64,000 nt of DNA. It comes from Patescibacteria group bacterium. Lineage in GTDB: Bacteria > Patescibacteriota > Microgenomatia > CAYGWK01. The position numbers were made by a program, and so were the translations under genes. The notes under the pieces were generated by a model. That model searched no databases. It saw only the letters and a list, made by a program, of their open reading frames with translations, and was not told the origin of the DNA. Location of the stretch: the NCBI GenBank assembly GCA_049322615.1, contig JBMORX010000003.1, positions 3,328-67,327 of the forward strand. Direction: 5' to 3'. Below are positions 14,690 through 52,555 of the stretch, one piece after another; within the stretch, counting starts at the first letter, position 1; each line of letters starts with the position of its first letter.

Positions 14690-14711
14690 CATCCCGATTT
14701 AATCGGGGATG
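14690..14711. terminator. Hairpin CATCCCGAT-TTAA-ATCGGGGATG downstream of secA; member of a CCCGATTTAATCGGG hairpin family
   Basis: The inverted repeat was read directly. The same core is found at 28970-28988 and 49379-49395. Confidence 0.5.
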
Positions 14712-14754
14712 GCTCAAAGAGCAGACATAGGAGGACCTCGCTTCCGCTTTCTGA

Positions 14755-18370: not shown

Positions 18371-18407
18371 TTCTCTATTTGCTATTTACAATTTACTATT
18401 TACTATT

Positions 18408-20339: not shown

Positions 20340-21492
20340 TTAGAGTTCTACCAATGGCAAAAGCGGTTCCATTAAGGGTATGAACAAATTCTGTTGTCTG
20401 TTGTCTGTTGTCTGTTGTCTTATAACGAATATTTAATCTCCTTGCCTGAAAATCGGTGCAAGTCGAAGTCGAGTGGGTTTCGCGGTATTTCTCTTGCGAA
20501 GGAATCCAGCATTCAATATCATATTTTCTGGCGGCTGGAGCCCCTAAGTCTCCGGTGCACATTTTAACCACCCGATAAGGCACTTCAATTAATTGAACTA
20601 GCTTTTCTTCAAGTGAGAGGAGATATTCATGTTCTCTGTCGCCCTGATCGGGTTTGGTGAAAGAAAACATTTCCACCTTGTCAAACTGATGGACACGCAA
20701 AATTCCCCTGGTATCTTTGCCATAAGCACCGGCTTCTCTCCGAAAACAAGAGGAAAATCCCAGATAGCGCCTTGGTAAATCTTTTTCTTCAAATACTTCA
20801 CCCTGATGCATTGGACCAATCGATTGCTCCGAAGTTCCAACCAAAACCAATCCGTCGTTTTCCAAAATATACATATCCTCCTTGCCACCATGCTCTAAAT
20901 ATCCCATCCCTCTCATCGTCTCTTTCTTAATCATAACCGTGGGGACAACCGGAATAAACCCCTCTTTAACTAAAGTCTCAAAAGCCAGCTGAACAAGAGC
21001 GAATTCTAAAATTGCTCCTTCGTTTTTTAAATATCCAAATCTTGAGCCGGAAACTTTTCCCGCTCTTTTAACATCAATAATGTCTAACAATTCACCTAAT
21101 TCCAGGTGATCTTTTGGTTTAAAACCAAACTCTTTGGGTTCTCCCCAACTTCTAATGACTTTATTTTCGGATTCATCTTTACCGAACGAAACATCGGGCG
21201 CGGGAAAATTTGGGACTTGAAGCATTAACTCTTGAAATTCTTCTTCTGCTTTCCGCAATTCTTGTTCCACCAGCTTTAATCTCTCTTTAAGTTTTTTTGC
21301 TTCGGGAGTTCCTTTCCCAATTTTGGCTAATTTGTTCCGCTTGGCCCGAAGCATCTCCGCTTCCTCCTGAATTTCTCTTTTTTTCCTATCCGCTAACAGA
21401 ACTTTATCGACAATCTTTGAATCGTATCCTTTTGCAACAATTCCAACTTTTACTTTTTCCGGATTTTCCCTGATAAGATTAATATCTAACAT
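20239..21492 (-). CDS. serS: Seryl-tRNA synthetase
   Basis: It has an N-terminal coiled-coil arm and class II motifs (FRREAGAYGKDTRGILRVHQFDKVE, TLNGTAFAIGRTLIAILENYQ). Confidence 0.9.
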   Translation of the reverse strand: MLDINLIRENPEKVKVGIVAKGYDSKIVDKVLLADRKKREIQEEAEMLRAKRNKLAKIGKGTPEAKKLKERLKLVEQELRKAEEEFQELMLQVPNFPAPDVSFGKDESENKVIRSWGEPKEFGFKPKDHLELGELLDIIDVKRAGKVSGSRFGYLKNEGAILEFALVQLAFETLVKEGFIPVVPTVMIKKETMRGMGYLEHGGKEDMYILENDGLVLVGTSEQSIGPMHQGEVFEEKDLPRRYLGFSSCFRREAGAYGKDTRGILRVHQFDKVEMFSFTKPDQGDREHEYLLSLEEKLVQLIEVPYRVVKMCTGDLGAPAARKYDIECWIPSQEKYRETHSTSTCTDFQARRLNIRYKTTDNRQQTTEFVHTLNGTAFAIGRTLIAILENYQQKDGSVLVPKTLQKYTGFEKISPKG

Positions 21493-28634: not shown

Positions 28635-28678
28635 AGTGAGTTTAGACTTCGGCTGAGCTCAGTCGAAGCCCCGAACCA

Positions 28679-28705
28679 TTAGCAGTCTATCACATTAATT
28701 GCTAA
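28679..28705. promoter_or_regulatory. CIRCE-like inverted repeat TTAGCA-N15-TGCTAA (TTAGCAGTC-N9-AATTGCTAA) in the lon leader; candidate HrcA operator
   Basis: It has the geometry of the CIRCE consensus TTAGCACTC-N9-GAGTGCTAA. The outer hexamers are perfect and the inner triplets diverge. It lies 45-70 nt upstream of the lon start. Confidence 0.5.
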
Positions 28706-28749
28706 AAAGCAATAGGTATTCGTAACACATCTAAATTCCGCCAGTCTCA

Positions 28750-28832
28750 CACGAATTTACACGAATCTGGCGACCACGTATCTTAGTTCTACCCCAAAAG
28801 GCAGTTTGGTCGCCTCACGAATTAACACGAAT
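28750..28832. promoter_or_regulatory. Two pairs of CACGAAT heptad direct repeats (CACGAAT-TTA-CACGAAT at 28750-28766, CACGAAT-TAA-CACGAAT at 28816-28832) in the lon upstream region
   Basis: I read them directly. The heptad-N3-heptad architecture resembles CtsR-type operators (GGTCAAA-NAN-GGTCAAA), but the sequence differs. Confidence 0.4.
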
Positions 28833-28969
28833 TTTGAGCCACCTTCAAGATGGTGAGGGCACAACTTTTGCGCCGAGTTTAATGTGACAGGGGACGTCTG
28901 ACGTCCCAGGCTTGCGCCATCCGAAAACAGCGCCACCAGACTCCTGGAATCTCTATCTAAGCAAGCCGT

Positions 28970-28988
28970 GTCCCGATTTAATCGGGAC
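28970..28988. terminator. Hairpin GTCCCGAT-TTA-ATCGGGAC downstream of the L,D-transpeptidase gene
   Basis: It is a perfect 8-bp inverted repeat with the same core as 14690 and 49379. Confidence 0.5.
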
Positions 28989-29035
28989 GTCATCTCTAAA
29001 CTCAAGCAACAAGTTCGTGCCCGAACCAAAACAAC

Positions 29036-38066: not shown

Positions 38067-39732
38067 CGCTTGCCCTTAGATCCTTAATTTTAAGTTGTAA
38101 TCTTTTTTCGTTATTCCACTGGTCACAAGTGAGGGTGTAGACTAAATCAAGTTCTTCATCCGGTGAAAGTTCCTGGAAAATACTTCCCATTCCAAAACCA
38201 ATAGCGTCAAACGTAACAAGAGACAAGGGACAGGCAACACGGAGCTTCAGATGCTTACCATCACCGCCAACAACCTTAGCGTCCGTAATAGTTAGGTTTC
38301 GGCTTAAGAAAACTGGCTCAGGATTGGCAAAACCAAATGGCTCAAGTTTTTTTAAGTTTTCAAAAAGTTCAAGATTTATATCAGAAAAATCAAGTTCCAA
38401 ATCAATTTTTAAAACTGGGGTCAATTTTTCTTCATCGAGTTCTCTTTCAGTAAATTGAGAAAGTCTGGTTTTTAACTCCTCAATTCTGGCTGTTTCAACC
38501 GTAAAACCAGCGGCTAAAGCATGACCCCCGTGAGGACCTAAAATATCAGCGCAGATCCTGATCGCCTCAACAATATTAAAACCATTAATTGAACGGGCGG
38601 AAGCCCGAGAATATTTTTCTCCTTGAGCAACAATAATTGCCGGTCGGTAAAACTCATCTACCAATTTTCCTGCTATCAATCCGACAATCCCTTCCTCATA
38701 AGACTGGTGCGAAACAAAAATCAGTTTACCTTTTCCATCCTGGGTAAGCCACAAATCTCGAGCATGGATAGTCATCTGTTCAGTTAAGAGTTGACGTTCT
38801 CGGTTTTGCTGATCAATTTTTCGGGCTAAAAGCGCTGCCTTTTCTACGTCTTTAGTGCAGAGCAGTCTCAGCGACTCCATCGGGTCCTCTATCCGTCCGG
38901 CAGCATTAAGCCGTGGACCAATAATAAACCCGATTTCATAAGTGCCAATATTCTCGGGAATTATCCCAGCCGCTTTGTAGAGTTGCCGAAGACCCAATCT
39001 TTTTGTCTTTCTGACCTCCGATAATCCATGATAAACAAGGCAGCGGTTTACCCCGATGAGGGGCATGACATCTACCACTGTTCCAATGGTGACCAAATCA
39101 AGTCCGGGTTTACCCAGTCTTGTGGCTAAAAACCAAGAGACGCCAGACCCAGAAAGCTTAGTGGTGTGAACTATTGCCTTGGCTTTGGGAATTTTTGCTC
39201 CCAGTAAATGATGGTCGGTTACAATCACATCAATTCCAATTTTTTGAGCATGTTCTACCTGCTTTAGGGCAACAATCCCATGGTCTGCGGTTATTATCAA
39301 ACCAATTTTGTCTTTAGCAAATTCATCAATTCTTTCAATCCTCATTCCATAACCTTCTTCTCTTTTAGGAATAAATGGCATAACCTCTGCTCCGAGCTTA
39401 TGAAGTGTTTCCCAAAGAATTGCCGTGGCGCAAACTCCATCAGTATCGTAGTCTCCATAAATTATGATTTTTTCTTTTTTTGAGATTGCCATTTTAATCC
39501 GCTTGACAGCCCCAGCCACCTGTTTCGGATTGATTCCTAAATCTTTGGCAGTCAGTTTATAAGGGTCAGGAGGGTTTAAAAATTCTTTAACTTCTTTCTT
39601 GGTCTTTATCCCCCGATTCGCCAATAAAATCTTAACAATCTGGTCAATTTTGATTTTTGATTTTTGATTTTTGAGTTTATTTAATATCGTCCATTTCTTC
39701 ATGATATCCCGCTCAGCGGGATGTATAATCAC
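38050..39732 (-). CDS. recJ: Single-stranded-DNA-specific exonuclease RecJ
   Basis: It has the DHH motifs (YGDYDTDGVCATAIL, ITADHG), a DHHA1 domain and a C-terminal OB fold. Confidence 0.85.
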   Translation of the reverse strand: MIIHPAERDIMKKWTILNKLKNQKSKIKIDQIVKILLANRGIKTKKEVKEFLNPPDPYKLTAKDLGINPKQVAGAVKRIKMAISKKEKIIIYGDYDTDGVCATAILWETLHKLGAEVMPFIPKREEGYGMRIERIDEFAKDKIGLIITADHGIVALKQVEHAQKIGIDVIVTDHHLLGAKIPKAKAIVHTTKLSGSGVSWFLATRLGKPGLDLVTIGTVVDVMPLIGVNRCLVYHGLSEVRKTKRLGLRQLYKAAGIIPENIGTYEIGFIIGPRLNAAGRIEDPMESLRLLCTKDVEKAALLARKIDQQNRERQLLTEQMTIHARDLWLTQDGKGKLIFVSHQSYEEGIVGLIAGKLVDEFYRPAIIVAQGEKYSRASARSINGFNIVEAIRICADILGPHGGHALAAGFTVETARIEELKTRLSQFTERELDEEKLTPVLKIDLELDFSDINLELFENLKKLEPFGFANPEPVFLSRNLTITDAKVVGGDGKHLKLRVACPLSLVTFDAIGFGMGSIFQELSPDEELDLVYTLTCDQWNNEKRLQLKIKDLRASDGERI

Positions 39733-41369: not shown

Positions 41370-42326
41370 ATGGATAATATAGATTTAGCTAAAAAAATTC
41401 TAGCTCGACACAAAATCACTTCGACTACCTTAGTTCCCTTAACAGGCGGTCAGGTAAATTTAATTTATAAAATCGACAACGGATACATCCTAAGAATTGG
41501 TAGAGATAAAGATTCATCTCGAAGATTACAGCATGAGTTCGACTTATTTAAATCACTTAAAGACAAGATACCTGTTCCGGAAATTTGTAACACTGGCGAG
41601 TTTGATGGAAACACATATCAAATTCAAAAACTCATTCCGGGGATTTTGCTGTCTAGGATTTGGAGGGAATTGACTTCTAAAGTGAAAGAATTGTTAGTAA
41701 AAGAAATAGTTACCTATCTCAAAATACTTCATCAAATTACTTTTGATAATTACGGATTGCAATATTCTGGCGAAAAATATACAAGATGGGTTGAGTTTTG
41801 GGAAGACAAGATTCGGCTGCTAAAAGTAGAGCTATCTTCTATTCAGACCTATCTACCAGAAGATATTTTAAATCTTGTTTTTAAACACTTTGAAACGAAC
41901 AAACATCTGCTTGGTGATGGAAAACCAGTTTTTATCCACGGAGATTTTTGGCCAGGAAATATCCTCGTCCACAAAAACAAAGTAAGCGGCTTTCTTGATT
42001 TTGAATTCGCAAGCCAAGCACCAAAAGAATACGAATTACTCTCTATCGAACGGTTTTGTTTGTATCCCAACGATTACGAAGACGAGGGAAAATATACTTC
42101 AACCGACTTCATAGATTTTGCTGTGCTATTCAAAAAATACTACCCCGAAATACTAGAAATCAAAAATTTAAGAAAAAGGCTAGACCTTTATCAAATGATT
42201 AGATGCATAGAATCCCACATAGGATACCTGGAGCGGCATTTATTATCACCAGAAAAATATTTTCCAATAAATCCAGTCGCTAAAATTACAAATTTTTTGT
42301 ACCAAGAGGGTGCACGAATTTTCTAA
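41370..42326 (+). CDS. Phosphotransferase enzyme family (APH/choline-kinase-like) protein, start moved to the internal Met MDNIDL
   Basis: It has the Brenner motif HGDFWPGNILV and the FLDFEFA motif. Confidence 0.6.
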   Translation: MDNIDLAKKILARHKITSTTLVPLTGGQVNLIYKIDNGYILRIGRDKDSSRRLQHEFDLFKSLKDKIPVPEICNTGEFDGNTYQIQKLIPGILLSRIWRELTSKVKELLVKEIVTYLKILHQITFDNYGLQYSGEKYTRWVEFWEDKIRLLKVELSSIQTYLPEDILNLVFKHFETNKHLLGDGKPVFIHGDFWPGNILVHKNKVSGFLDFEFASQAPKEYELLSIERFCLYPNDYEDEGKYTSTDFIDFAVLFKKYYPEILEIKNLRKRLDLYQMIRCIESHIGYLERHLLSPEKYFPINPVAKITNFLYQEGARIF

Positions 42327-42395
42327 TACTTAATTCTAATCTGGTTCAATGCTCTTACAATACGGTATCGTAATGAGGCTGCGATCCGGTAAAAT

Positions 42396-43229
42396 TTAAA
42401 TTTCGCGCTTCTTTAATTTTTTTTCTATTTTTTCTGCAACTTCAAAATAAATTTCCGAACTATACATAGATCTTTTGTCTAGAAACTCAGGGCTAATTTT
42501 TGCTTCTCGAATAATTTTTCTTGCCTGGTTTTTGGTTAATTTTTGCTGGTAAAGTTTAGCAAAAATTTTAATGACTGCTTCTCGCAAAGCATTTTTCACT
42601 AAGGCTGGCTCATGTTCATAAAGATATTGACGAATAAAACGGCCAATGTCTCCAACCGAAAGAGACTCTTTGAGTCTGGTAATCTTTATAACCACGGCAT
42701 TACTATCTGAAACAGGATAAAAAGCGGTTTTTGGGATATCAAAAACTTTTTCAATCTTATAAAAGGCGCTAAAAATCGGTGACTCAAGAATTTTAAAAAG
42801 AAATTTTTTCGGAATAACAAAAACGATCATTTTAAATGGAGTATGGGTAAACTTGTGCATCATTGGCTCACAAAGACTGTAAGGAAGATTAGAAATCAAT
42901 TTATCGAAAGATATTTTGGGCCGATGGGGTCCGCCCAAAATTTTCCAGGCATCTCCGTAGACAACTTTAACATAACGAGGAAGTTTATCAAGAATTGGTT
43001 TAAATCTCTTATCTATCTCAATCGCCAAAACATTGTTGGTGTATTTTGCTAGCTCTCGAGTAATCAAACCAAGTCCCGCGCCAATTTCGACCACCTGCTC
43101 GTTTGGTTGAATTTCGGCGATTTCAACAATCTTTTCAAGAATATCTTGGTCAACCAGAAAAAATTGATCTTTAAGAGGATCTGGCTTGATTTTATATTGA
43201 GTTAAAAGTTTTCCTATTTCCTCTTCCAT
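42396..43229 (-). CDS. rsmA: 16S rRNA (adenine1518/1519-N6)-dimethyltransferase RsmA/KsgA
   Basis: It has SAM motif I (VVEIGAGLGLITREL) and the NLPY motif. Confidence 0.85.
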   Translation of the reverse strand: MEEEIGKLLTQYKIKPDPLKDQFFLVDQDILEKIVEIAEIQPNEQVVEIGAGLGLITRELAKYTNNVLAIEIDKRFKPILDKLPRYVKVVYGDAWKILGGPHRPKISFDKLISNLPYSLCEPMMHKFTHTPFKMIVFVIPKKFLFKILESPIFSAFYKIEKVFDIPKTAFYPVSDSNAVVIKITRLKESLSVGDIGRFIRQYLYEHEPALVKNALREAVIKIFAKLYQQKLTKNQARKIIREAKISPEFLDKRSMYSSEIYFEVAEKIEKKLKKREI

Positions 43230-43292
43230 AGGATAATTTTAGTATTCTTCAAGGCGGTGTAAGCGATTTAAATCATTAGAACAAGCCGCGCA

Positions 43293-43316
43293 TCATATAT
43301 TAATATATGATGCATA
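43293..43316. promoter_or_regulatory. Perfect 24-bp palindrome GCATCATATATTAATATATGATGC upstream of rsmA
   Basis: I read it directly. An adjacent GATTTAAATCA half-copy of the tsaB-type palindrome lies at 43277-43287. Confidence 0.45.
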
Positions 43317-43338
43317 AAGAGGTAATGAAAATCATATT

Positions 43339-43599
43339 TTAGACCTGAGGTTTCTGATAACTCTCAAAGGCAGCAGCCGCTGTCGGATTAACGCCCCTTA
43401 AAAGCTCTAAAACTTTGTTTCTGATTTCTAACGAATGAATAATCCCGTTTTGAGCCGCACCTTGAGCCCAAGACTCAACTTGAACGGTAATGCTTTCTGC
43501 CTCTGCAGCACTTGCTCCAGATTTGAGCAAACCCGCTGATATTTTATTGCGATCAAAAGGCTCGAGACTTCCGTCCTTCTTTTGAACTTGCAAATTCAT
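43339..43599 (-). CDS. ATP-cone domain protein (86 aa)
   Basis: The N-terminus KKDGSLEPFDRNKI matches the ATP-cone consensus (V.KRDG..E.FD..KI). Confidence 0.5.
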   Translation of the reverse strand: MNLQVQKKDGSLEPFDRNKISAGLLKSGASAAEAESITVQVESWAQGAAQNGIIHSLEIRNKVLELLRGVNPTAAAAFESYQKPQV

Positions 43600-44495
43600 T
43601 TTCTCACCCCCTTTCTTCTTTCTTCAATTTGATTCCAGATGACTAACAAGGGGGCGGCGGTGAAGGTTGAAGAATAAGTTCCGGAGATGGTGCCGATTAA
43701 CAAAGCGGCAACAAACCACTTAATAGTTACCCCTCCTAAAAGTAAAAGAGCAATTAACATAAAAATAATAGTTAGGGAGTTATTCAAAGACCGCGAGAGG
43801 GTCTCGGTGACGGCTTTGTTAACTAAATCCACAAATGCTGTTTGGGGCAATCTTTTTTGCGATTCCCGAATTCGGTCATAAACAACGACCGTATCATGAA
43901 CCGAGAAAGAAAGAATCGTCAACATGGCGGTCACAAATAAAGTATCAATTTCAACGTTCAAGAAATGTCCCAAAAGAGAAAAACTTCCCAATAAAACAAA
44001 GGAGTCATGAAACATTGCCAAAATGGCGCAAATTCCAAACTTAGGGTCTTTGAAAGCCCAGGCAACATAACCTAGAATAAATCCAGCAGCCAAGATTATG
44101 GCAATCAAAGTTTTTACTAAGAGTTCTCGTCCCAAAATCGGACCAACGGTTTCAAAGCGAAGTTCTTGGGGCATTTCTTCAAATTTCTCCGCCAAGGCGG
44201 CTTTGATGGTTGAAACATCGTCTTTGGTGATTGGTTTTAAGCGGATTAAAACAGTTTTGTTGCCGGAAATTTGAACTGAAGAAACATCAAAATTTTTATT
44301 TTTTATCGTCTCCTCAATTGCTAAATTGCTAAATTGCTCAATTGCTGGCTTCTCGAATTTCAATTCGAGTAAAGAACCGCCGGTGAAATCAATTGAGGGT
44401 TTAAGACCAAAGAGGATAAGAGAAAAAATTCCCGGCACCAAAACCAGGGCGGATAAAAGAAAATACAGCCATTTAAATTTCATAAAATTCAACAT
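43596..44495 (-). CDS. secF: Protein-export membrane protein SecF
   Basis: It has six TM helices and the SecD/F family topology. It lies downstream of secD. Confidence 0.85.
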   Translation of the reverse strand: MLNFMKFKWLYFLLSALVLVPGIFSLILFGLKPSIDFTGGSLLELKFEKPAIEQFSNLAIEETIKNKNFDVSSVQISGNKTVLIRLKPITKDDVSTIKAALAEKFEEMPQELRFETVGPILGRELLVKTLIAIILAAGFILGYVAWAFKDPKFGICAILAMFHDSFVLLGSFSLLGHFLNVEIDTLFVTAMLTILSFSVHDTVVVYDRIRESQKRLPQTAFVDLVNKAVTETLSRSLNNSLTIIFMLIALLLLGGVTIKWFVAALLIGTISGTYSSTFTAAPLLVIWNQIEERRKGVRK

Positions 44496-44525
44496 CCGAA
44501 TACTCCCGAATTTAAATAATCCGAA

Positions 44526-45863
44526 TTAATCCGAATTTTTACCTCGATAAAGTGCTCTCAATAGTGTTCTTGTCACCACGATACCCGTAAACAGGGAAAT
44601 AAATATCCCCAAACTTAAAGTTAAAGCAAATCCCCGGACCATGCCCGAGACATTTAAGAAATTCCAATTAAAAGGATTAAATAAAATAAAACAGGTAATT
44701 AAAGTACAAATATTGGCATCCCGAATTGAATCCCAAGCCCGACCAAAACCAAGTTCTAACGCTTGCTGCCAGGGTTTGCCTGAGCGAATTTCTTCTTTCA
44801 TTCTTTCAAAAATTAAAATATTTGCGTCAACTGCCATCCCGACGGAAAGGATAAATCCGGCAATTCCAGGCAAAGTTAAAGTTACCGGAATAAGTTTATA
44901 TAAAGCCAGCGTTATTAAACCATAAATTATTAAAGCCAAATCTGCTAAAAACCCAAGTTTTCCATAATATGCCCACATAAAACCAACAACCATTAAAAGT
45001 CCAACTAAACCTGCCCTCATACTTCTTTGAACCGACTCGACTCCCAGAGTAGCGCCAACATTTCGTTGTTCAATAATTTTGATGGGGACGGGAAGAGCTC
45101 CAGCATTAAGCTTAATTGATAAATCGCGGGCGCCATCAACGGTAAAATTTCCTCTAATAATAGCATCGCCTGAAGTAATTGCCTCCTCAACTACTGGAGT
45201 TGAAATTGGTCTACCATCAAGATAAATAGCCACGATTTTGCCAACATTTCTCAAGGTTATATCAGCAAACTTTTTCGCTCCCTCGGATGAGAACTCTAGA
45301 CTAACGATCGGTTGCCCTGTATTTTGGTCAAATCTAACCTGAGAGCGTTTTAAATCTTTGCCAGTTAAATCAGTGGGCTTAAAACCAGCTGCGGGTGTTG
45401 CCTCTTTCTGTTCCCAAAATTCAAGTTGAGCTGTCGTTCCGATTAAATCAATAGCACGATTGATATCCTTGACTCCCGGCAGTTCAACAACTAAACGATA
45501 GTCTTCACCCCTCTTTGAGGTTTGGACCGTTGCTTCAGTTACCCCAAAGAAATTAACCCGACGTTCGATATTATTCTTGGCTGCCTCTATCGCCGAATCT
45601 CTATCTTCTGGGCTAATTTTTTTTATCTCAGCTTGAAAAACCAAATGTGTTCCCCCGGCTAAATCCAGTCCTTGTTTAAGGTGAAGTTCTCGCTTTATTT
45701 TTAAATTACCCAAGGAAAAATCAAGGTCCGGACCAGAAATTTTCGTGTCAACGGAAAATTTTCTCCAAGAGAATTTAATTGGAAAATCTTTGGGGAGATC
45801 GATAATAAACGAGATAATGGTCAAAAAAATGATAAATAAGAGGAGCAGTCTTTTTTGTTTCAT
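44526..45863 (-). CDS. secD: Protein-export membrane protein SecD
   Basis: It has a large periplasmic loop and six TM helices, with the conserved C-terminal RND-like core. Confidence 0.85.
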   Translation of the reverse strand: MKQKRLLLLFIIFLTIISFIIDLPKDFPIKFSWRKFSVDTKISGPDLDFSLGNLKIKRELHLKQGLDLAGGTHLVFQAEIKKISPEDRDSAIEAAKNNIERRVNFFGVTEATVQTSKRGEDYRLVVELPGVKDINRAIDLIGTTAQLEFWEQKEATPAAGFKPTDLTGKDLKRSQVRFDQNTGQPIVSLEFSSEGAKKFADITLRNVGKIVAIYLDGRPISTPVVEEAITSGDAIIRGNFTVDGARDLSIKLNAGALPVPIKIIEQRNVGATLGVESVQRSMRAGLVGLLMVVGFMWAYYGKLGFLADLALIIYGLITLALYKLIPVTLTLPGIAGFILSVGMAVDANILIFERMKEEIRSGKPWQQALELGFGRAWDSIRDANICTLITCFILFNPFNWNFLNVSGMVRGFALTLSLGIFISLFTGIVVTRTLLRALYRGKNSD

Positions 45864-46093
45864 CTTTTCTTACGATGGAGGAAATTTTCTGAAAGTGGAA
45901 GTTGTTTTACTCCTGAGAAAAAATAAGTTATTCTCCCTCTGTCTTTTTCAAGTCTAGTCTTGACCGGATCACCAATCCTAATCCCTAAATCACGAACAAA
46001 CTCGGCAGGAATGGTTAAAGCAGCAGAATTTCCGGTTTTAATTACTTTTTGGGCCATAATCTTTTTAAGAAACAAGTTCGACTTCTTCGCCAA
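45860..46093 (-). CDS. AbrB/SpoVT (MazE-like) swapped-hairpin DNA-binding protein
   Basis: The segment KVIKTGNSAALTIPAEFVRDLGIRIGDPV matches the SpoVT/AbrB domain. Confidence 0.55.
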   Translation of the reverse strand: MAKKSNLFLKKIMAQKVIKTGNSAALTIPAEFVRDLGIRIGDPVKTRLEKDRGRITYFFSGVKQLPLSENFLHRKKR

Positions 46094-46643
46094 TAATCAT
46101 TACCTTAGAGGCAGAAAGAATTCCCATTAAAAATGGATCTCGACGCTCCCGTCTAAAAGCAAATTCTTCATTCGTCATTACCGTGTAATTTATTTCCTGG
46201 TCCCTTTTGGTCTCCTCGGCTTTAATTAGGGCCGCCAACTCTGGTAAAACGATTTCTCCGACCACCAAAATGTCAACTTCATTTTTCTGGCGGGGGATTC
46301 TTTTAACAAATTTTCCAGAAAAGGCAACAAAGATGATTTTGCCAATTTTTTGTCTATTTTTAAGAATTTCCTGCCCCAGTCCGCAAGTTTTGCTAACCAA
46401 GTTCAACAGTTCGTTATAAAACAAATAATCTTTTCTAAACCAGTAATAAAGCCGATTGCCTCTCGGTTCCTTTTTCACCATTCCACAATTCTCCATATGC
46501 TCAAGTTCTCTCCTTACGGCATTTATTTCCTCATCGGTTCGACGGACCAATTCTCGAACATGATACATCTCCCTCGGATCAGAAAGAAAAGTTTCCAAAA
46601 GTTTTACCCTAACCTTTGAAATCAAAAGATCACGAAGTTCCAT
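46065..46643 (-). CDS. Winged-helix (ArsR-like) regulator fused to a minimal nucleotidyltransferase-like domain
   Basis: It has an N-terminal wHTH (VRVKLLETFLSDPREMYHVRELVRRTD...) and a C-terminal GS...EVD pattern (AFSGKFVKRIPRQKNEVDILVVG) like minimal nucleotidyltransferases (MNTs). Confidence 0.45.
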   Translation of the reverse strand: MELRDLLISKVRVKLLETFLSDPREMYHVRELVRRTDEEINAVRRELEHMENCGMVKKEPRGNRLYYWFRKDYLFYNELLNLVSKTCGLGQEILKNRQKIGKIIFVAFSGKFVKRIPRQKNEVDILVVGEIVLPELAALIKAEETKRDQEINYTVMTNEEFAFRRERRDPFLMGILSASKVMIIGEEVELVS

Positions 46644-46755
46644 ACTTGCAACACAGAAAGCACAGAAACCCTATTTTTCTTCCGTGCTTCTGATATAATT
46701 CAGTGTTCTCTGTGTTTACGGGGCAGGTATTCAAAACACAAAGGACACAGATGAT

Positions 46756-47937
46756 TTAATAACTCACCTCGCTTCCTGTGGGCAGAATTTCAATCCAAAT
46801 TTGTCCCCGATTAAGTTTTATTTCTTTACCTTTCGTGTCTTTAAAAACCATTCTCTCTTTGCGGTCTTTTTTATTCCAAGTCCCCTCTAAAACTTGACCA
46901 TCCTGAAAGATAAGCACTTTACCCGAACCTTTTGTGCCATATAGAAGATGAAGATTCCCCTCATAGCCATCGTTGGCTCTTGACTCTTTCATAAAAGCAA
47001 GGACTACTACCTTTCCTCGAATCTCGCTCTCATCATTTCTATCTTTCTGGGCTAACCCGCCATTAATTCTTTTATAATCATTTGCTGTCTGGTCGTATTC
47101 CCATTTAACATCATAATCCGAATATCCTTTCCAGAAAGAAAATGTCGGACTTTTTGTCCCCCTTTCGCCTTCTTTGCTATCTTCTTTAAATTGCCATTTA
47201 AGAAAATTTTTATCCCAAGGAACACTTGCTTCGTCGACATTCGTCAAATTTCTTTTTTCCGCCACGATAAAAAGCTTATCGCTCGTCGAATACATCGTGT
47301 GTTCCGTCGCCACCGGATGGTCAAGCCGCTCGTAATCTCGCCAAAAAGTAGGAAAACCAATTGAAAATTGATTTAAATCATTTCCTTTTTTAAGCCAACC
47401 ATAGTCGCCAATTTGCCCTAAAGCATTGGCTCTCCCGGGGGTATTGGCACCACCAACATGAGCATAGAGGGGAAAATCTCCATATTCTGAAGCAAAATCA
47501 AGAAAATAAGTTCGAGCCGAGCGGACTGGACCGATTTGAACATCAAAAGCCGAGACACCACAGTAAAAAATTGCTAAAAATCGGGTAATTCCTCCTTCGG
47601 AGACTGCCTCATAGACAATATCGGCTCGAGAAACCCCTGATTGAGGACGAGAGTCTTGATGATTTTCAATCATGACGCTCAATGGTCGGCGCTTACTCCA
47701 GATATCTTTTTCTGCTTTGGTATATTTTTGACCATTTAGAGGACATTCTTCGGTCTTAGGAGCCGATAAATCAACCCTAAATTTACTCTCTCCTGAAGGT
47801 AAGGGAGAAACTATCAAAGGACCGGGAACTTTAAGGTAAGAAAAAGTGGCATAAGAGATACCAGTCGTTAAAAGATAAAGACCAAGTCCGGCTAAAGTTA
47901 AAAGTATTATTTTTTTCTTTTCTCTAATTTTTTCCAT
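46756..47937 (-). CDS. DUF3048 (YerB-like) putative lipoprotein
   Basis: It has an N-terminal TM/signal segment and motifs such as IENHQDSRPQSG, ADIVYE and EGGITRFLAIF. Confidence 0.55.
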   Translation of the reverse strand: MEKIREKKKIILLTLAGLGLYLLTTGISYATFSYLKVPGPLIVSPLPSGESKFRVDLSAPKTEECPLNGQKYTKAEKDIWSKRRPLSVMIENHQDSRPQSGVSRADIVYEAVSEGGITRFLAIFYCGVSAFDVQIGPVRSARTYFLDFASEYGDFPLYAHVGGANTPGRANALGQIGDYGWLKKGNDLNQFSIGFPTFWRDYERLDHPVATEHTMYSTSDKLFIVAEKRNLTNVDEASVPWDKNFLKWQFKEDSKEGERGTKSPTFSFWKGYSDYDVKWEYDQTANDYKRINGGLAQKDRNDESEIRGKVVVLAFMKESRANDGYEGNLHLLYGTKGSGKVLIFQDGQVLEGTWNKKDRKERMVFKDTKGKEIKLNRGQIWIEILPTGSEVSY

Positions 47938-47967
47938 ATTTCTGCGTCTCCACGGTATTTCTGCGCT

Positions 47968-48435
47968 TCAGCGCTTTTGGGCTTTTTCTATCGCCTCTTT
48001 TTCCTCTTTAGAAAACTCGTATCCAACAGGCTTGCCGTTTTTGACTGGTTTGGCATAAATTCTTGTCTGGTCCCGGCTGTGCAAACTTGAAATAATAATC
48101 CCGTTATCGTGCCCATCCAAAACTGCTAAAGTGAAACTTTGACTTCCGCCGGTATCAGAAAATGGATTAAATCTGACTAAACCTGTCTTTTGAACATGAA
48201 ACCTTCCATCTTTTTCTATTTCGTCGGCTCTTTTTATAATTCCATCAATTCTTTTTTCGGTAATCTTTTCTTCTTTTAAAATTTTTTCCAGAATTGAGCC
48301 TAAATCCTCTTTAGTTGTCCCTGTCGTCAGTCTCCGGTAATGGAAAACTGCCCGGAAAAGAAAAAAAGACAAAGCCCCAAGCCAAACAAAAATTGCTCCT
48401 AACAAAATTAAGGACAACTGTTGATTGAGTAACAT
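47968..48435 (-). CDS. Hypothetical membrane-anchored protein (DUF4446-like)
   Basis: It has an N-terminal TM helix. The family assignment is tentative. Confidence 0.4.
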   Translation of the reverse strand: MLLNQQLSLILLGAIFVWLGALSFFLFRAVFHYRRLTTGTTKEDLGSILEKILKEEKITEKRIDGIIKRADEIEKDGRFHVQKTGLVRFNPFSDTGGSQSFTLAVLDGHDNGIIISSLHSRDQTRIYAKPVKNGKPVGYEFSKEEKEAIEKAQKR

Positions 48436-48493
48436 TTTACCACATTATTTTATCCCGGTTCCACACCTTGTGTCAACCCCGTATAATGCTTGC

Positions 48494-48598
48494 TTGCTCC
48501 CGTGGTCTACGTCCACGCGTCGCAAGAGCGCATATACGGGGCAAGCCCCTCAAATAAAATGAAGCCTCCCCGCCCATGGAAGGGCGGGGTTTCTCTTT
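48494..48598 (+). ncRNA. Candidate small structured RNA with a TATAAT -10 box (48482-48487) and a strong intrinsic terminator (CCCCGCCC-AUGGAA-GGGCGGGG + UUUCUCUUU)
   Basis: The segment is GC-rich relative to the genome. A 5' helix pairs GCUUGCUCCCGU with ACGGGGCAAGC. The terminator stem is at 48568-48589 and the U-tract at 48590-48598. No ORF is present. Confidence 0.45.
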
Positions 48599-48607
48599 CG
48601 AGAAAGG

Positions 48608-48624
48608 TCCCGACTAAGTCGGGA
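48608..48624. other. Hairpin TCCCGAC-TAA-GTCGGGA (variant of the CCCGATTTAATCGGG family)
   Basis: It is a 7-bp inverted repeat that I read directly. Confidence 0.4.
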
Positions 48625-48697
48625 AGGCTGCGATTCTTGCTTCATTCATCTCCGCCCACAGAGGGGCAGAGTATTCTGAAGCGCGAAATAAAATCTC

Positions 48698-48731
48698 TTA
48701 CCGAAATTAGACACGTGTACAATTTTGTCAA
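48698..48731. repeat. Sixth, half-degenerate copy of the 34-bp palindromic element (CACGTG-TACA-ATTTTGTCAA; left arm decayed)
   Basis: The right arm and the CACGTG core are intact. The left arm matches only the AAAT part. Confidence 0.45.
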
Positions 48732-48766
48732 CAGGGGTTTTGAAAAAACTTGATGCCTGTGGTATT

Positions 48767-48809
48767 ATTCGGATACATTCGGATAATTTTCATTCGGATG
48801 AATTCGGAT
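48767..48809 (+). repeat. Four direct repeats of ATTCGGAT phased at 10, 15 and 10 bp (iteron-like or tandem regulator-binding sites)
   Basis: The copies are at 48767, 48777, 48792 and 48802, so spacing is about one helical turn. Confidence 0.5.
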
Positions 48810-48869
48810 GTCCAGAAAAACTCGCCAGGAAAAAATTATTGCCGACCTCCGCCGAAGACTGGAAGCAAC

Positions 48870-49015
48870 CAGAAATAGAAGTGAGGGTGAGAAGTGGGAC
48901 GTGGGTCGAGAAGTGAGGGTGAGTCGTGAGGAATTAAAAAACTCCCCGCCCCAATTTCCCATCTCTCAACCCACTTCTCACTTCCCATCCTCACCCTCAA
49001 TCTCTACTTCTTACA
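48870..49015. repeat. Long imperfect inverted repeat built from GAAGTGAGGGTGAG/GTGGG modules (left arm 48870-48925, right arm 48945-49015)
   Basis: A direct repeat AGAAGTGAGGGTGAG occurs at 48876 and 48912. The complement modules CTCACCCTCA, CACTTCTCACTTCCC and CCCACTTCTC lie in the right arm. The ORFs through this region are probably spurious. Confidence 0.45.
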
Positions 49016-49235
49016 TTAAAAAAGACTTGACAAAAACCTTTCTCTTGACAATACTTGCAATTAGCCTTGAGCTTGTGCTATACTTCCTAACTAGGATAGG
49101 CAAGATTTAAAAACTTTACTCTGCCCGACTAGAATTATAATCGTAGCTTAGGCAATGGCGAAAAAGGAGGCTTGCCTCTCCGAAGCTCGCCTACGCCAAA
49201 GGCTACGGCGAGCGAAGGGAGGTGAGAAAGATTTA

Positions 49236-49379
49236 TGGCAACCATGTACTGTGTTAAGTGCCGCGCCAAGAAAGACGTCGCCAACCCACAGAGAGTGACG
49301 ATGAAAAATGGCAAGCCGGCAATGAAAGCCTCTTGTCCAGATTGTGGCACAACCATGTTCAAGATTGGTGCCGCGTAAT
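49236..49379 (+). CDS. Small zinc-ribbon protein (47 aa, CxxC...CxxC)
   Basis: It reads MATMYCVKCRAKKDVANPQRVTMKNGKPAMKASCPDCGTTMFKIGAA. A GGAGG SD lies 9 nt upstream and a hairpin follows. It is not in the ORF track because it is under 60 aa. Confidence 0.5.
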
Positions 49380-49395
49380 CCCGATTAAATCGGGA
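49379..49395 (+). terminator. Hairpin TCCCGAT-TAA-ATCGGGA directly after the zinc-ribbon gene stop
   Basis: It has the same core as 14690 and 28970. Here it is clearly at a gene 3' end. Confidence 0.5.
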
Positions 49396-49470
49396 AACGC
49401 GGCTAAAACGTTAAATCTTTCAAGATTTTTTACGTTTTGCCGCGTAATCCTGCCTAAACACCAACTCTCT

Positions 49471-49519
49471 TTGACAGTTCGTCACGACTTTTATGGAACT
49501 ATCGTTACGAAACTGTCAA
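49471..49519. repeat. Palindromic element variant TTGACAGTTCGTCACGA-N13-TCGTTACGAAACTGTCAA (TTGACA/TGTCAA termini as in the 34-bp family)
   Basis: The arms are imperfect 17-bp inverted repeats. A further hairpin lies at 49399-49448 (CGCGGCTAAAACGT / ACGTTTTGCCGCG). Confidence 0.4.
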
Positions 49520-49565
49520 CCTCGCCGAAGCCTATGGCGAAGGCGGGTTAGTATCAAAGAGAATT

Positions 49566-49599
49566 AAAAAACCCCGTTCTATTTCTGGAGCGGGGTTTT
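49566..49599. terminator. Bidirectional intrinsic terminator AAAAAACCCCG-N13-CGGGGTTTT
   Basis: The GC stem is flanked by an A-run and a T-run, so it can serve the plus-strand zinc-ribbon locus and the minus-strand ZIP gene. Confidence 0.6.
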
Positions 49600-49619
49600 G
49601 GTGAGATAAAATTTAAAAA

Positions 49620-50363
49620 TCAGCTAATAAATTTTAACCCAAGCATTATGCCGATTCCGGCAAGCAAACCGAGGAGTTGGACGAGGGATTTTTGGGGTCT
49701 TGTTTCTTTATGAAGCTCGGGAATTAAATCGGTTGAGGCAATATAAATAAATCCACCGGCAGTAAAAGGAATAAGACTTTCAGAAAACCCAGAAATTCTT
49801 GGGCCAAAACTTAAGACAAAGATTGTTCCCAAAATCGCCATTAGGGATGAGAGAAAATTAAAGATTATGGCTTTTTTCTTGCTAAATCCTCCATGGATTA
49901 AAACACCAAAATCCCCAATCTCTTGAGGAATTTCATGAAAGATAACCGCAATCGAAGTTGCTATTCCCAAGGAAAGACTGACAACAAAAGTTGCCCCAAT
50001 AATCACTCCATCAATAAAATTATGGAGTCCATCACCTATCAAATTCATAAAAACCACGGGGTGGGGATGATCTTTTGAGGTTGGAATATGACAATGGCGC
50101 CAGGCAATAAATTTTTCCAAAATAAAAAATGTTAAGATTCCTACCAGAATCGCTAGATTTGTTTCCAGATTTAATCCTTGGTTTTCCGCAACTTCTGGCA
50201 AAAGATGAATAAAAGTATCTCCTAAAAGTCCACCGGCGGCAAAAGAAACTAAAATTAAAAGCGCTTTTTCCGTTCTTTTTTCTCCAACCACTATACTCAA
50301 AACCCCAACCAAAGAAATTAAACTAACAATCACAACTGATGTGATTGAGTAAAACCAAACCAT
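49620..50363 (-). CDS. ZIP family metal (zinc) transporter
   Basis: It has eight TM helices and the HEIPQEIGDFGVL motif of ZupT-like ZIP proteins. Confidence 0.8.
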   Translation of the reverse strand: MVWFYSITSVVIVSLISLVGVLSIVVGEKRTEKALLILVSFAAGGLLGDTFIHLLPEVAENQGLNLETNLAILVGILTFFILEKFIAWRHCHIPTSKDHPHPVVFMNLIGDGLHNFIDGVIIGATFVVSLSLGIATSIAVIFHEIPQEIGDFGVLIHGGFSKKKAIIFNFLSSLMAILGTIFVLSFGPRISGFSESLIPFTAGGFIYIASTDLIPELHKETRPQKSLVQLLGLLAGIGIMLGLKFIS

Positions 50364-50365
50364 TT

Positions 50366-50797
50366 TTAAACTTGCTCCTCTTCGACAGGTGGCGCAGATG
50401 CTGGCGGCGTCTCGGTTGTCGGCGGTTGAGTCGACGGTACTCTGGTTGGTTGGGTTGGTTCCGTTGGTGTTCCGGTTGGTGGCGGTGCCCCAGGAAGCGG
50501 CGTTTCCGGAATTGGGGGAACTTGAGTCTCTTCAACTGAAGTCTGAGGTGTTACCTGGGTTGGCGTCTGCCAGGCAGGCATTGTCCTCATGTGCTGATCA
50601 ACTTCGGCTGCTATCTCCTCGCGAGTTTTTCCCGGAGACTGTTGCATTTGAAAATTAATCATTCCTTCTCGGACTTCTTCTTTTGATTTAAGATTACCGC
50701 TTGGGTCAGTACAATATTTACAATAAGGATTCTCTACTCTTGCACCACCATGATCGGCATCAGTTGCCATCGGCATCCCGCATGATTGACAATTCAT
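50366..50797 (-). CDS. Zinc-ribbon domain protein with a Pro/Thr-rich C-terminal tail
   Basis: The N-terminal ribbon is MNCQSCGMPM...NPYCKYC, followed by a low-complexity P/T/Q tail. It is co-oriented and adjacent to the ZIP transporter gene. Confidence 0.6.
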   Translation of the reverse strand: MNCQSCGMPMATDADHGGARVENPYCKYCTDPSGNLKSKEEVREGMINFQMQQSPGKTREEIAAEVDQHMRTMPAWQTPTQVTPQTSVEETQVPPIPETPLPGAPPPTGTPTEPTQPTRVPSTQPPTTETPPASAPPVEEEQV

Positions 50798-50960
50798 ATT
50801 ATCTTGTCACCTCCTTTCGTCTCAGTGCCTTCTAGAGTAAGAAATTCTGTTTCCGAATGCACCCCCTAATCACAGAAGGCACTGAATTTACCTAAGAGCA
50901 CTGAAATCTCTGTGCTCTCAGTGATTCCATCCTCCCATTCGGTTTTTTCTAAAACTAGTA
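50798..50960 (-). promoter_or_regulatory. Structured leader of the zinc-ribbon/ZIP operon: extended -10 promoter (TGTTATACT), two hairpins and mutually exclusive pairings, strong SD
   Basis: A 12-bp inverted repeat TCAGTGCCTTCT/AGAAGGCACTGA lies at 50822-50833 and 50873-50884. A 7-bp AGAGCAC/GTGCTCT hairpin lies at 50887-50910. An outer pairing CCGAATG/CATTCGG encloses the first arm, and the SD AGGAGGTGA precedes the ATG. Confidence 0.45.
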
Positions 50961-51013
50961 TAACATTTTTTCAACTTTCCTGTTTAGGTCCCTTCGCTAA
51001 CGCTCAGGGTAAA

Positions 51014-52555
51014 CTAATCCGTACCCTTCGGACGGTATTGTAAGGCTTCAGCAATGTGGTTTGGGCTTATTTCTTTTTCACCAGCCAAATCAGCAATAGT
51101 TCGAGAAACTTTAATAACCCTGAAGAAACTTCTGGCGGTTAAATTCATCTGAATAGTTGCCTGACGAAGTAAAGTCAAACATTCTGAAGACAGCCTACAA
51201 AAACGCTTAACATCCTTTGTTGTCATTTCTCCATTACAGATAATTTTTGTTCCCTTGAATCTTTTAGTCTGTAAATCTCTCGCTCTTTGGACCCGCCTTT
51301 TTATTATTTTTGAGGTTTCTGCGTTTTCCACCGATTTCTGCGTTTCTGCGGTTGCAAGCTTATCTACCTTCACTGCCGGCACCTCCAAATGTAAATCAAT
51401 TCTGTCTATTATTGGTCCAGAAATTCTTTTTTTGTAACGCTGGACCTGACCTGGAAGACAAGTGCAGGGCTTGACCGGATCGCCTAAATATCCACAGGGG
51501 CAAGGGTTTGAGGCGGCGACCATAATAAATTTTGCCGGAAAGGTTAAAGTCCCGGCTGCCCGAGAAACAGTCACAATCCCATCTTCCATCGGCTGCCTCA
51601 GAGCCTCTAAAACATGACGGGGAAATTCGGGAAATTCGTCCAAGAACAAAACACCCCGATGAGCCAGAGAAATTTCTCCAGGGGCAGGATGGCTTCCTCC
51701 ACCAATTAAGCCAATTCTTGAAGTCGTATGATGAGGTGAACGAAAAGGTCGATATTTCACAACCGACTCGCCTGGGGGCAAATTTCCGGTAACTGAATAA
51801 ATTTTTGTCACTTCAAATGCTTCCTCTTCGGTTAAATCAGGCAAAATCCCAGGCAGAGCCCGGGCTAACATCGTTTTCCCCGCTCCTGGTGGACCAATCA
51901 TCACAACATTATGTCCTCCGGAAGCAGCAATTTCCAAAGCCCGTTTAACATGCTCCTGTCCCCGAACATCAGCCATATCAAATTCAACCAAAACATTGGA
52001 AGTGATTTTTGAAAAAGGAGTATGGGGAATTGGCTTTATTTCCTCTCCGCCTTGAAGATGATAGAAAAGTTGTAAAAGGGAGGAGACTGGATAAATTTTA
52101 AGACCTTTGATAACCGAGGCTTCCCTGCTATTTATTTGCGGCAAAAAAATTCTTTTAAACTTTTTTTCTTTTGCCAAAATTGCCATCGCCAAAACACCGT
52201 TGGTATGGCGGAGAGAGCCGTCAAGGGAGAGTTCACCTAAAACTAGAGCATCTTTTAAATCCGCTTTTAACTGCCCGGAGGCAACCAAGATTCCTAAAGC
52301 AATTGGCAAATCATAAGAAGGACCAACTTTTGGTAAATCCGCTGGAGCAAGGTTGACAGTGATACGGCGCGGCGGAAAATCTGCCCCAGAATTTTTCAAA
52401 GCCGAACGAACTCTCTCCTTGGCTTCCTCAACGGCTTTATCTGGAAGTCCGACGATGGTAAAAGAAGGCAGACCTTGGGAGGCAATATCAACTTCAACCT
52501 CAATTGGAACAGAATCAAGTCCTACGGTCGCGCCAGAAAAAACCCGGGCAAGCAT
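51014..52555 (-). CDS. comM: YifB/ComM family Mg-chelatase-like AAA+ ATPase
   Basis: It has an N-terminal Lon-like domain, Walker A (GPPGAGKTM) and sensor motifs. Its first 26 codons are duplicated at 59408-59484 and partly at 60756-60783. Confidence 0.85.
   Translation of the reverse strand: MLARVFSGATVGLDSVPIEVEVDIASQGLPSFTIVGLPDKAVEEAKERVRSALKNSGADFPPRRITVNLAPADLPKVGPSYDLPIALGILVASGQLKADLKDALVLGELSLDGSLRHTNGVLAMAILAKEKKFKRIFLPQINSREASVIKGLKIYPVSSLLQLFYHLQGGEEIKPIPHTPFSKITSNVLVEFDMADVRGQEHVKRALEIAASGGHNVVMIGPPGAGKTMLARALPGILPDLTEEEAFEVTKIYSVTGNLPPGESVVKYRPFRSPHHTTSRIGLIGGGSHPAPGEISLAHRGVLFLDEFPEFPRHVLEALRQPMEDGIVTVSRAAGTLTFPAKFIMVAASNPCPCGYLGDPVKPCTCLPGQVQRYKKRISGPIIDRIDLHLEVPAVKVDKLATAETQKSVENAETSKIIKRRVQRARDLQTKRFKGTKIICNGEMTTKDVKRFCRLSSECLTLLRQATIQMNLTARSFFRVIKVSRTIADLAGEKEISPNHIAEALQYRPKGTD

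Follow-up and report, generated by a model that had tools for sequence, protein, structure and literature searches.

What does a short interval of a Patescibacteria genome encode when it appears to be crowded with repeats and nearly devoid of genes? The interval in question occupies positions 48436-49619 of a 64,000-nucleotide stretch of contig JBMORX010000003.1 (assembly GCA_049322615.1, positions 3,328 to 67,327 of the forward strand; hereafter the window, whose numbering is used throughout) and is bordered by a DUF4446 gene and the gene of a ZIP transporter. The window has a G+C content of 39.6%, and its nearest database proteins come from metagenome-assembled genomes of Patescibacteria/Microgenomates. 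The initial annotation, made from the sequence alone, had described the interval as gene-poor and without protein genes, and had proposed a regulatory RNA locus, a replication or partition site, or the scar of a mobile element. Our analysis makes it very likely that the locus is a conserved bicistronic operon encoding a 100-residue membrane protein and a DUF5679 protein, with a promoter of its own, a bidirectional terminator that is shared, and a divergent orientation relative to DUF4446, and that its gaps have been filled by dispersed palindromic repeats.

The first gene of this operon (48808-49110, forward strand) has 30 homologues, with E-values down to 5.5e-38 when an identical NCBI record (P0001, 9e-57) is set aside. 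Its product consists of a basic N-terminal motif, a variable linker, and a C-terminal hydrophobic/transmembrane helix. The family conserves KTRQEKIIADLRRKL at the N-terminus and YIKKDLTKTFxLxILAISLELVLYF at the C-terminus, and in these conserved parts the DNA differences among homologues are mostly synonymous. The long imperfect inverted repeat that had been reported here is present (approximately 48878-49003), but it lies within this open reading frame (ORF), so the claim that the locus lacks protein genes does not hold. The second gene is the 47-residue CxxC...CxxC zinc ribbon of the initial annotation, which is real and only one base off the earlier coordinates (49235-49378, forward strand). 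It matches Pfam PF18930 (DUF5679) over the whole protein length and over model positions 1-40 of 40 (E = 5e-16; 59 bits against a cut-off of 27). The DUF5679 gene follows the 100-residue gene on its 3' side in eight related loci (L022, L023, L024, L026, L029, L058, L059, and L060), and this conserved pairing of two families without a known function, a small membrane protein and DUF5679, is an observation of the present analysis. The pair also adjoins DUF4446 and DUF3048 in Microgenomates (loci L022-L030 and L058-L060). As a minor observation, the N-terminus of the 100-residue protein gave a weak match to the HeH motif (E = 0.023), which hints at nucleic-acid binding by this protein at the membrane.

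The signals flanking the two genes are likewise shared with relatives. The divergent DUF4446 gene (47968-48435, reverse strand; Pfam PF14584, E = 2.7e-34) is equally placed in L022, L023, L026, L029, L059, and L060. It is preceded by a predicted promoter-like site (TTGACA-18-TAAAAT, 48447-48476, reverse strand, 11 of 12 matches), and the TGTCAA...ATTTTA arrangement beside its start is retained in relatives. A second predicted promoter-like site (TTGAAA-17-TATTAT with an upstream TG, 48740-48768, forward strand) precedes the operon and has a positional counterpart in L022 (TTGACT-17-TATTCT). At the distal end, both the downstream hairpins (49365-49612) and the bidirectional terminator (49568-49599) noted earlier are present. 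The latter is an intrinsic terminator that separates the operon from the convergent gene of the ZIP transporter (49620-50363, reverse strand), and it is conserved in L022, L026, L058, and L060.

Comparison with eight related contigs revealed where the additional DNA of the window resides. In relatives the order is DUF4446 on the reverse strand, 80-100 nt, the 100-residue gene, 25-70 nt, DUF5679, and a hairpin terminator; the full order is explicit in L022, L023, L026, L058, L059, and L060, while L029 has the same gene order but a different insert of its own before DUF5679 and hence a longer gap. The module of the window is approximately 650 nt longer than in the compact relatives, and the excess is distributed over four inserts. 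The first, 263 nt in length (48477-48739), separates the divergent -35 boxes, which are 11 nt apart in L022; it combines a GC-rich stem that is unique, a single copy of a structured repeat that we call element R, and a degenerate 34-bp palindrome. The second, about 40 nt that separate the operon's -10 box from its ATG, consists of an array of the 8-mer ATTCGGAT, the third (about 80 nt) precedes the DUF5679 ribosome-binding site, and the fourth (about 150 nt) follows the DUF5679 stop codon. Judged by these alignments, the apparent gene-poverty of the locus is the enlargement of every non-coding gap by hairpin-forming, lineage-specific DNA. The mobile-element scar of the initial annotation thus comes closest among the earlier proposals, as comparison with orthologous loci shows the interval to be a patchwork of inserted segments.

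Element R (48556-48699, forward strand) is a dispersed structured repeat of about 145 nt that was identified by translated search and a covariance model. Its copies were found by translating a spurious 87-residue ORF and searching protein collections with the result: the peptide (MKPPRPWKGG...LKREIK; MKPPRPWKGGVS...LRFLLHSSPP...ILKREIK) forms part of at least eight ORFs that are otherwise unrelated. The parent ORF (48490-48753) was rejected as a gene, having no Pfam match and, as its sole conserved part, the repeat embedded in unrelated proteins. The contexts of the other copies include an apparent N-terminal extension of a DUF2905 protein, which is in reality the 5' leader of that gene, an in-frame position in a family 2 glycosyltransferase (GT2; P0036, residues 240-285), and a DUF498 protein (P0037, residues 90-135) whose domain matches fall into two stretches, the best of which (residues 4-89, profile positions 1-81 of 109) ends just before the repeat. 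At the DNA level, copies at L061:3041-3187, L062:4061-4207, and L063:2765-2911 (L063/L064) align with window positions 48556-48699. All copies fold alike, into a three-hairpin junction plus a long hairpin; 46 base pairs are common to three sequence types, eight of them with compensatory double changes, and the covariance-model score is 162.8 bits, with a single copy in the window. Hairpin 1 is the "terminator" hairpin of the initial annotation (48568-48589), which is followed by TTTCTCTTTC, the T-run being the 5' arm of hairpin 2, and hairpin 3 is its "family hairpin" (48608-48624). Logan contigs from the same sample stop at 48594 and resume at 48630, both within element R, as expected of a repeat. 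With in-frame insertion into intact conserved genes and a structure conserved among its copies, element R is, as far as these comparisons reach, an element that resembles the Rickettsia palindromic elements (RPEs). In a separate observation, the 17-nt hairpin TCCCGAYTAARTCGGGA occurs four times in the window against 0.03 expected (14692-14708, 28971-28987, 49379-49395, and 48608-48624); three copies lie 0-50 nt past stop codons and lack a T-run, and the fourth is hairpin 3 of element R.

The second family is represented in the operon leader by a 43-nt element (48767-48809, forward strand) that contains four exact copies of ATTCGGAT at 48767, 48777, 48792, and 48802, i.e., spaced 10/15/10. The four direct repeats of the initial annotation were thereby recovered exactly. 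Unit 1 overlaps the -10 box, and the final unit, ATTCGGATG, holds the start codon. The 8-mer occurs nine times in the window against 3.2 expected, and a second 43-nt copy with the same 10/15/10 spacing is found on the reverse strand at the secD/secF junction (44494-44536), where the stop codon of secD, a ribosome-binding site (GGGAG), and, again within ATTCGGATG, the ATG of secF are all supplied by it. This second array is an insertion, because secD and secF overlap by ATGA in L023 with an orthologous SecF start, and the window carries a 41-nt insert at that point. At the leader site, the element is missing from the operon-bearing relatives L022, L023, L029, L059, and L060, and two degenerate units are found in L026 and L058. 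In the relatives, only some 8-25 nt separate the -10 box from the start codon of the 100-residue gene downstream, so we infer that their mRNA is leaderless or nearly so; the four-unit array would convert such a near-leaderless mRNA into one with a leader of about 35 nt. Just upstream of secD (45860-46643) lie genes for a 192-residue winged-helix-like protein and a 77-residue AbrB/MazE-type protein, the second of which overlaps secD. This arrangement is conserved in L023, L029, and L059, and the two products are possible DNA-binding candidates for the nearby repeats.

Metagenome contigs were scanned for this element with a pattern of 22 specified bases that forces exact matches in units 1-3. 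The scan returned 27 loci against approximately one expected by chance according to our own estimate; one of them (L054) looks like a chance match, leaving 26. These represent about 19 unique contexts, including secD/F, L18/S5, HU, L31, tatD, and recF, and the 16 unique arrays with a 7-nt central spacer yielded the consensus ATTCGGAT-NN-ATTCGGAT-WATTTTC-ATTCGGAT-NN-ATTCGGAT. Full palindromes of eight units (about 90 nt, with four inverted units directly upstream) occur in L031, L040, L047, and L048. They are near-perfect palindromes, and hence their ends are inverted repeats. That of L047 occupies its own secD/secF junction, and ATTCGGATG again provides the secF start; the L18/S5 gap and the gap that separates miaA from a transporter gene also contain palindromic copies. 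Half-copies were found in the 5' leaders of HU and L31 genes, and others lie antisense beside stop codons; a more complex multi-unit array precedes tatD in L037. In the recF genes of two different genomes (L034 and L035) the element sits in frame and adds 11-16 residues after HRDDF. These inserts read RIRINPNKSNPNKSEW and SIRIIPNGNNPNLSESNGSEL, respectively, and their position corresponds to a short strand preceding the conserved GSxGxQR motif. The array is, on the evidence of its many unrelated contexts and of filled versus empty orthologous sites, a dispersed palindromic repeat in its behavior.

The units of this repeat have been kept far better than the spacers between them. Unit 4, which the search pattern left unconstrained, shows 89% identity to the consensus, versus a modal frequency of 45% at the NN spacers. 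Between the recF orthologues, 31 of 32 unit positions agree, versus 5 of 11 spacer positions. The secD/secF copies of the window and L047 agree by hand count at 26 of 32 unit positions and 5 of 11 spacer positions, and the SecD and SecF proteins of L047 are 57-61% identical to those of the window. Because the units are so much better conserved than the spacers, some protein probably recognizes them, either a mobilizing enzyme or a host protein; ongoing homogenization among copies could instead account for the pattern. A CsrA-type regulated leader, for which several GGA motifs with one at the ribosome-binding site are characteristic, was also considered: each unit contains GGA, the last one abutting the ATG, and palindromic copies would bury these GGA motifs in a duplex.

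The remaining inserts flank the DUF5679 gene. Between the two genes, a hairpin predicted by folding (49171-49226, forward strand) pairs its 3' arm with GGGAGGTGA, the ribosome-binding site of DUF5679 (49217-49225), and is missing in L022, L023, L026, L058, L059, and L060. Past the DUF5679 stop codon, comparison with L022 and L060 delimited lineage-specific hairpin inserts (49379-49551, forward strand). One of them, of 69 nt, is bounded by the 13-nt direct repeat TGCCGCGTAATCC (49369 and 49438), a copy of the end of the DUF5679 gene itself; another, of about 77 nt (49475-49551), interrupts the ancestral palindrome CTCTTTGA|TATCAAAGAG, which is unbroken in L060. The region 49365-49612 folds with z = -8.3. 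A 97-residue ORF at 49258-49551 yielded no homologue in a translated protein search of this 3' region. Searches for further copies of 48477-48555, 49111-49234, and 49379-49560 with blastn, nhmmer, and a covariance model found none in approximately 0.5 Mb of fetched loci. The hairpins after DUF5679 look like local events rather than members of a dispersed family.

[quoted passage not shown] Their hairpins or repeated units would be read by some protein, and local effects would arise as a by-product. Such effects may include insulation of the divergent promoters by the GC-rich hairpin and T-run, the added 5' leader, and a DUF5679 ribosome-binding site that is partly masked. Several observations weigh against this proposal. 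By eye, no target-site duplication flanks the ATTCGGAT element at five copies (L040, L047, L048, and the two window copies). Element R has no terminal inverted repeats, and a 9-nt flanking repeat, AAATAAAAT, accompanies the window copy only. No transposase or other mobilizing gene turned up, though none was searched for, and the 64 kb of the window hold just one copy of element R and two of the ATTCGGAT element. The maintenance of the units at orthologous sites despite approximately 60% SecD/SecF identity fits a host function better than neutral junk. Finally, the segment 48477-48555 with its TATAAT box is not accounted for, and a short transcript from it is weakly possible.

As an alternative to selfish DNA, the array could be a working cis-regulatory module, whose 8-mers are bound, as DNA or as mRNA leader, by a protein that controls the downstream transcription or translation start, here those of the operon and of secF. 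The conserved units and variable spacers speak for such a module, as does the position of the arrays: in roughly half of the unique loci, a start codon follows the end of the last unit at a distance of 0-10 nt (HU, L31, S5, and tatD, with ATTCGGATG at the window copies and at the L047 secF), and the ATG-proximal unit is often altered to the Shine-Dalgarno-like ATTAGGAT or ATTCGGGAG. The divergent terminase/scaffold late-promoter region of P2-like phages moreover contains this 8-mer pair, 10 bp apart and accompanied by inverted partners. However, half-copies are also found in antisense orientation, at the 3' ends of genes, and within ORFs (L032, L034, L035, L049, and L057), close relatives express these genes without having the array, no candidate for the binding protein emerged, the exact matches that the pattern forces in units 1-3 inflate the apparent conservation, and the phage match may be a coincidence inherited in one phage lineage. 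We regard a cis-regulatory module as unlikely. The phage parallel itself emerged from a scan of viral contigs for ATTCGGAT-NN-ATTCGGAT, which gave 111 loci (L065-L175). About 75 of the 112 viral matches fall in four groups of P2-like prophages with a G+C content from 0.41 to 0.63, in which inverted units follow the pair 7-18 nt downstream (e.g., L068:3881-3915, L070:6038-6083, and L099:1302-1346; L068 is from Vibrio by its phage-record matches). Where examined, each fetched stretch has a single occurrence of the motif, which in L068 and L070 falls within the divergent region that separates the terminase and scaffold genes. Phage P2 has an annotated site for the late activator Ogr in that region, yet does not contain ATTCGGAT. 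The parallel may thus be a single coincidence inherited in one phage lineage, or it may reflect a shared recognition code. In its boldest form, the latter would make the module a domesticated protein-binding platform at Patescibacteria gene starts (secF, S5, L31, HU, and the present operon) that supplants translational coupling or leaderless initiation and shares its code with P2-like phages. We consider this rather improbable; if true, the shared code would point to one widespread family of DNA-binding proteins of fixed specificity. A link between the DUF5679 zinc ribbon and Ogr-type activators was also considered, on account of the phage motif, and set aside, as DUF5679 has no match to Pfam Ogr_Delta and is kept in relatives without the array.

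The inverted repeat within the 100-residue gene raises a separate question. It forms a long imperfect hairpin (48878-49003, forward strand) in the part that codes for the linker, supported by folding and covariation. The left arm is purine-rich (GAAGTGAGGG modules) and encodes E/K/R/G/V, and the right arm is pyrimidine-rich and encodes P/S/T/H/F. When the 159-nt linker was folded against shuffled sequences, z was -5.1 in the window, -3.4 in L022, -2.7 in L023, -1.9 in L029, and -1.6 in another close relative, and approximately zero in distant homologues. When eight sequences were aligned, pairing over the outer 16 pairs reached 81%, versus 34-45% in slid controls, nine of these 16 pairs showed double changes, and the covariation score was attained by none of 500 shuffles. 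Two subgroups carry different complementary arms (GAGAAGTGGG/CCCACTTCTC versus GGGTTATGAG/CTCATAACTC). The hairpin is, as this alignment indicates, maintained within the subclade, and either selection on an RNA or DNA structure or concerted evolution of the arms would explain it. Its modules (GAAGTGGG/CCCACTTC and GGCGAAG/CTTCGCC) are heptamers that form perfect tandem runs in other genes of the window.

A selected RNA structure, acting as an RNase III site, as a translational pause, or in tuning protein ratios, is an alternative to an inserted palindrome with concerted arms. It draws on the complementarity that different sequences uphold in the two subgroups, on the doubly changed outer pairs, and on the shuffling result. 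Nevertheless, the alignment comprises just eight related sequences, the hairpin is missing in more distant homologues, the same heptamers occur elsewhere as plain tandem repeats, e.g., (TGGGAAG)x5 in an 895-residue ORF, and template switching between the arms would likewise keep the pairing, which leaves selection on the RNA a tentative alternative that we hold to be the less probable. A structured RNA had also been proposed for the opposite end of the locus, where the unique GC-rich segment 48477-48555 (forward strand) contains the TATAAT box of the initial annotation (48482-48487, present as described) and a branched stem (48492-48546). According to that proposal, the box drives a transcript of about 105 nt that ends at 48568-48599; as a variant, element R itself would be a multicopy, trans-acting structured RNA. 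The promoter-like site scores 10/12, with a TCCACA -35 hexamer 16 nt upstream, the GC-rich hairpin at 48568-48589 (eight G-C pairs) and the T-rich run after it are present, folding gave z = -2.95 for a 111-nt and -4.9 for a 211-nt segment, and compensatory changes uphold the structure of element R in three sequence types. Still, the proposed RNA is not one unit, its 3' part being a repeat that runs on to 48699. Although 48568-48599 fits the pattern of a hairpin plus T-run, the T-run pairs with GAGAAA as the stem of the second hairpin of element R, with compensatory changes elsewhere, and element R also sits in frame within genes that look intact and whose expression an efficient terminator would abolish. 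Neither the putative promoter nor the first stem belongs to element R, and both lack a homologue in approximately 0.5 Mb of fetched relatives; comparison with relatives, which had been suggested for this segment, found it missing from all that bear the operon. At gathering level, Rfam recovered from the whole window only one tRNA, at 24969. In E-value mode, the only matches in 48300-49750 were miRNA-hairpin noise, located on the inverted repeat that is coding, and scraps below threshold, Rfam found nothing in the L061 copy of element R, and ARAGORN detected no tRNA or tmRNA in the structured segment. A genuine small RNA gene is accordingly quite doubtful, and the absence of an Rfam family, the absence of the region from operon-sharing relatives, and the occurrence of the terminator half within coding genes also argue against a regulatory RNA locus. 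A replication origin, terminus, or partition site has only its appearance in its favor, i.e., direct repeats about one helical turn apart combined with a long inverted repeat. No DnaA box with up to one mismatch occurs in 41932-51488 (13 in the window against 14.6 expected), the cumulative GC skew passes through the locus without a turn, and the neighbors are DUF4446, the ZIP transporter, and other housekeeping genes, with no adjacent dnaA, rep, or par. The supposed iterons are a dispersed element, found also at secD/secF and at 26 other loci, and the inverted repeat is coding, which together render this explanation extremely improbable. The earlier remark that the direct repeats resemble a tandem binding array was reasonable in view of the conserved units and free spacers, whereas the iteron origin drawn from it was not borne out.

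With the operon and its repeat-filled gaps as the preferred account, the two families can be compared with known systems. REP sequences, their composites known as bacterial interspersed mosaic elements (BIMEs), and enterobacterial repetitive intergenic consensus (ERIC) sequences are short intercistronic repeats of enterobacteria that fold into hairpins once transcribed and are found both complete and in part. The elements described here likewise fill gaps in operons (secD/secF and L18/S5), form hairpins, and occur as full and partial copies, and element R resembles BIMEs in having two similar GC-rich hairpins in direct orientation. They differ in that no REP-associated tyrosine transposase (RAYT) is linked to them and that REPs are not normally found in frame within genes. 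RPEs insert in frame in conserved protein genes and are also intergenic (PMC10969869). The likeness is close, as both are short (about 45-150 nt), structured or palindromic, and dispersed over intergenic and in-frame positions (GT2 and DUF498 for element R, recF for the ATTCGGAT element). The hosts, however, are Patescibacteria/Microgenomates rather than Rickettsia, there is no sequence similarity, and the ATTCGGAT element consists of 8-mer units at fixed spacing and not of a single long palindrome. MITEs of the Correia type are small and palindromic, are often situated directly upstream of a gene, and can provide signals for promoters or ribosome binding (PMC10969869). The present elements share with them their small size, non-coding and palindromic nature, presence or absence at orthologous sites, position upstream of genes, and supply of signals, but no target-site duplication was observed in them, they have no known parent insertion sequence, and terminal inverted repeats are lacking in element R. 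A further parallel is offered by tandem operator or iteron arrays, the Ogr region of P2-like phages among them, in their direct repeats at about one helical turn, inverted partners, conserved units, and free spacers, and P2-like phages of Vibrio and others carry the identical 8-mer pair in the P-O late-promoter region. In contrast to such arrays, the present copies are scattered, also over coding regions, and have no adjacent rep gene; phage P2 itself is without ATTCGGAT.

The searched literature held nothing relevant on the motif, on DUF5679, or on repeat elements of the candidate phyla radiation (CPR), and nothing that linked CPR bacteria to repeats of this type. At least two repeat families thus seem to be undescribed, even though their kind (REP/MITE/RPE-like) is ordinary. 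CPR genomes are tiny and tightly packed and are usually described as repeat-poor, and the repeats reported here occupy gene junctions, 5' leaders, and genes themselves. Spread in frame into conserved genes, as in recF, the glycosyltransferase, and DUF498, is best known from Rickettsia. Such repeats also have practical consequences, as they cause spurious ORFs, false calls of a small RNA plus terminator, and assembly breaks. Furthermore, the conservation of ATTCGGAT units at orthologous sites suggests a protein that reads them.

Several additional repeats were identified in the window. Directly after element R lies a degenerate copy (48698-48731) of the 34-bp palindrome TTGACAAAAT-N4-CACGTG-N4-ATTTTGTCAA, which corresponds to the half-copy reported by the initial annotation. 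Full copies occur at 7492-7525, 7930-7963, and 9655-9688, i.e., three within 2.2 kb, and their flanks are unrelated. Both strands of this palindrome read TTGACA-17-TATTTT, with the -35 box in one half and the -10 box in the other, and it could therefore serve as a compact bidirectional promoter or operator. Two non-coding stretches of about 200-400 nt between same-strand genes (28640-29035 and 14560-14755) contain GC-rich hairpins without a gathering-level Rfam match; these could be divergent housekeeping RNAs or further repeat clusters.

Tandem runs of heptamers or octamers, which resemble the short tandemly repeated repetitive (STRR) heptamers of cyanobacteria, were observed in or beside long ORFs at 15849-15883, 18083-18110, 18154-18188, 18375-18407, 20390-20420, 39648-39678, and 44316-44346. 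One of them, (CTTCCCA)x5, encodes GKWEVGSGKWE in a variable loop of the 895-residue ORF (14755-17442), which we take to be SecA-like by its motifs. Further runs are (CTTCGCC)x4, (AATTACT)x5, (TCTGTTG)x4.4, and (AATTGCTA)x3.9, the last in secF. Similar runs, of (AGTAAAT)n and of (TAGCAATT)-like units, flank the ATTCGGAT arrays in L039, L050, and L051.

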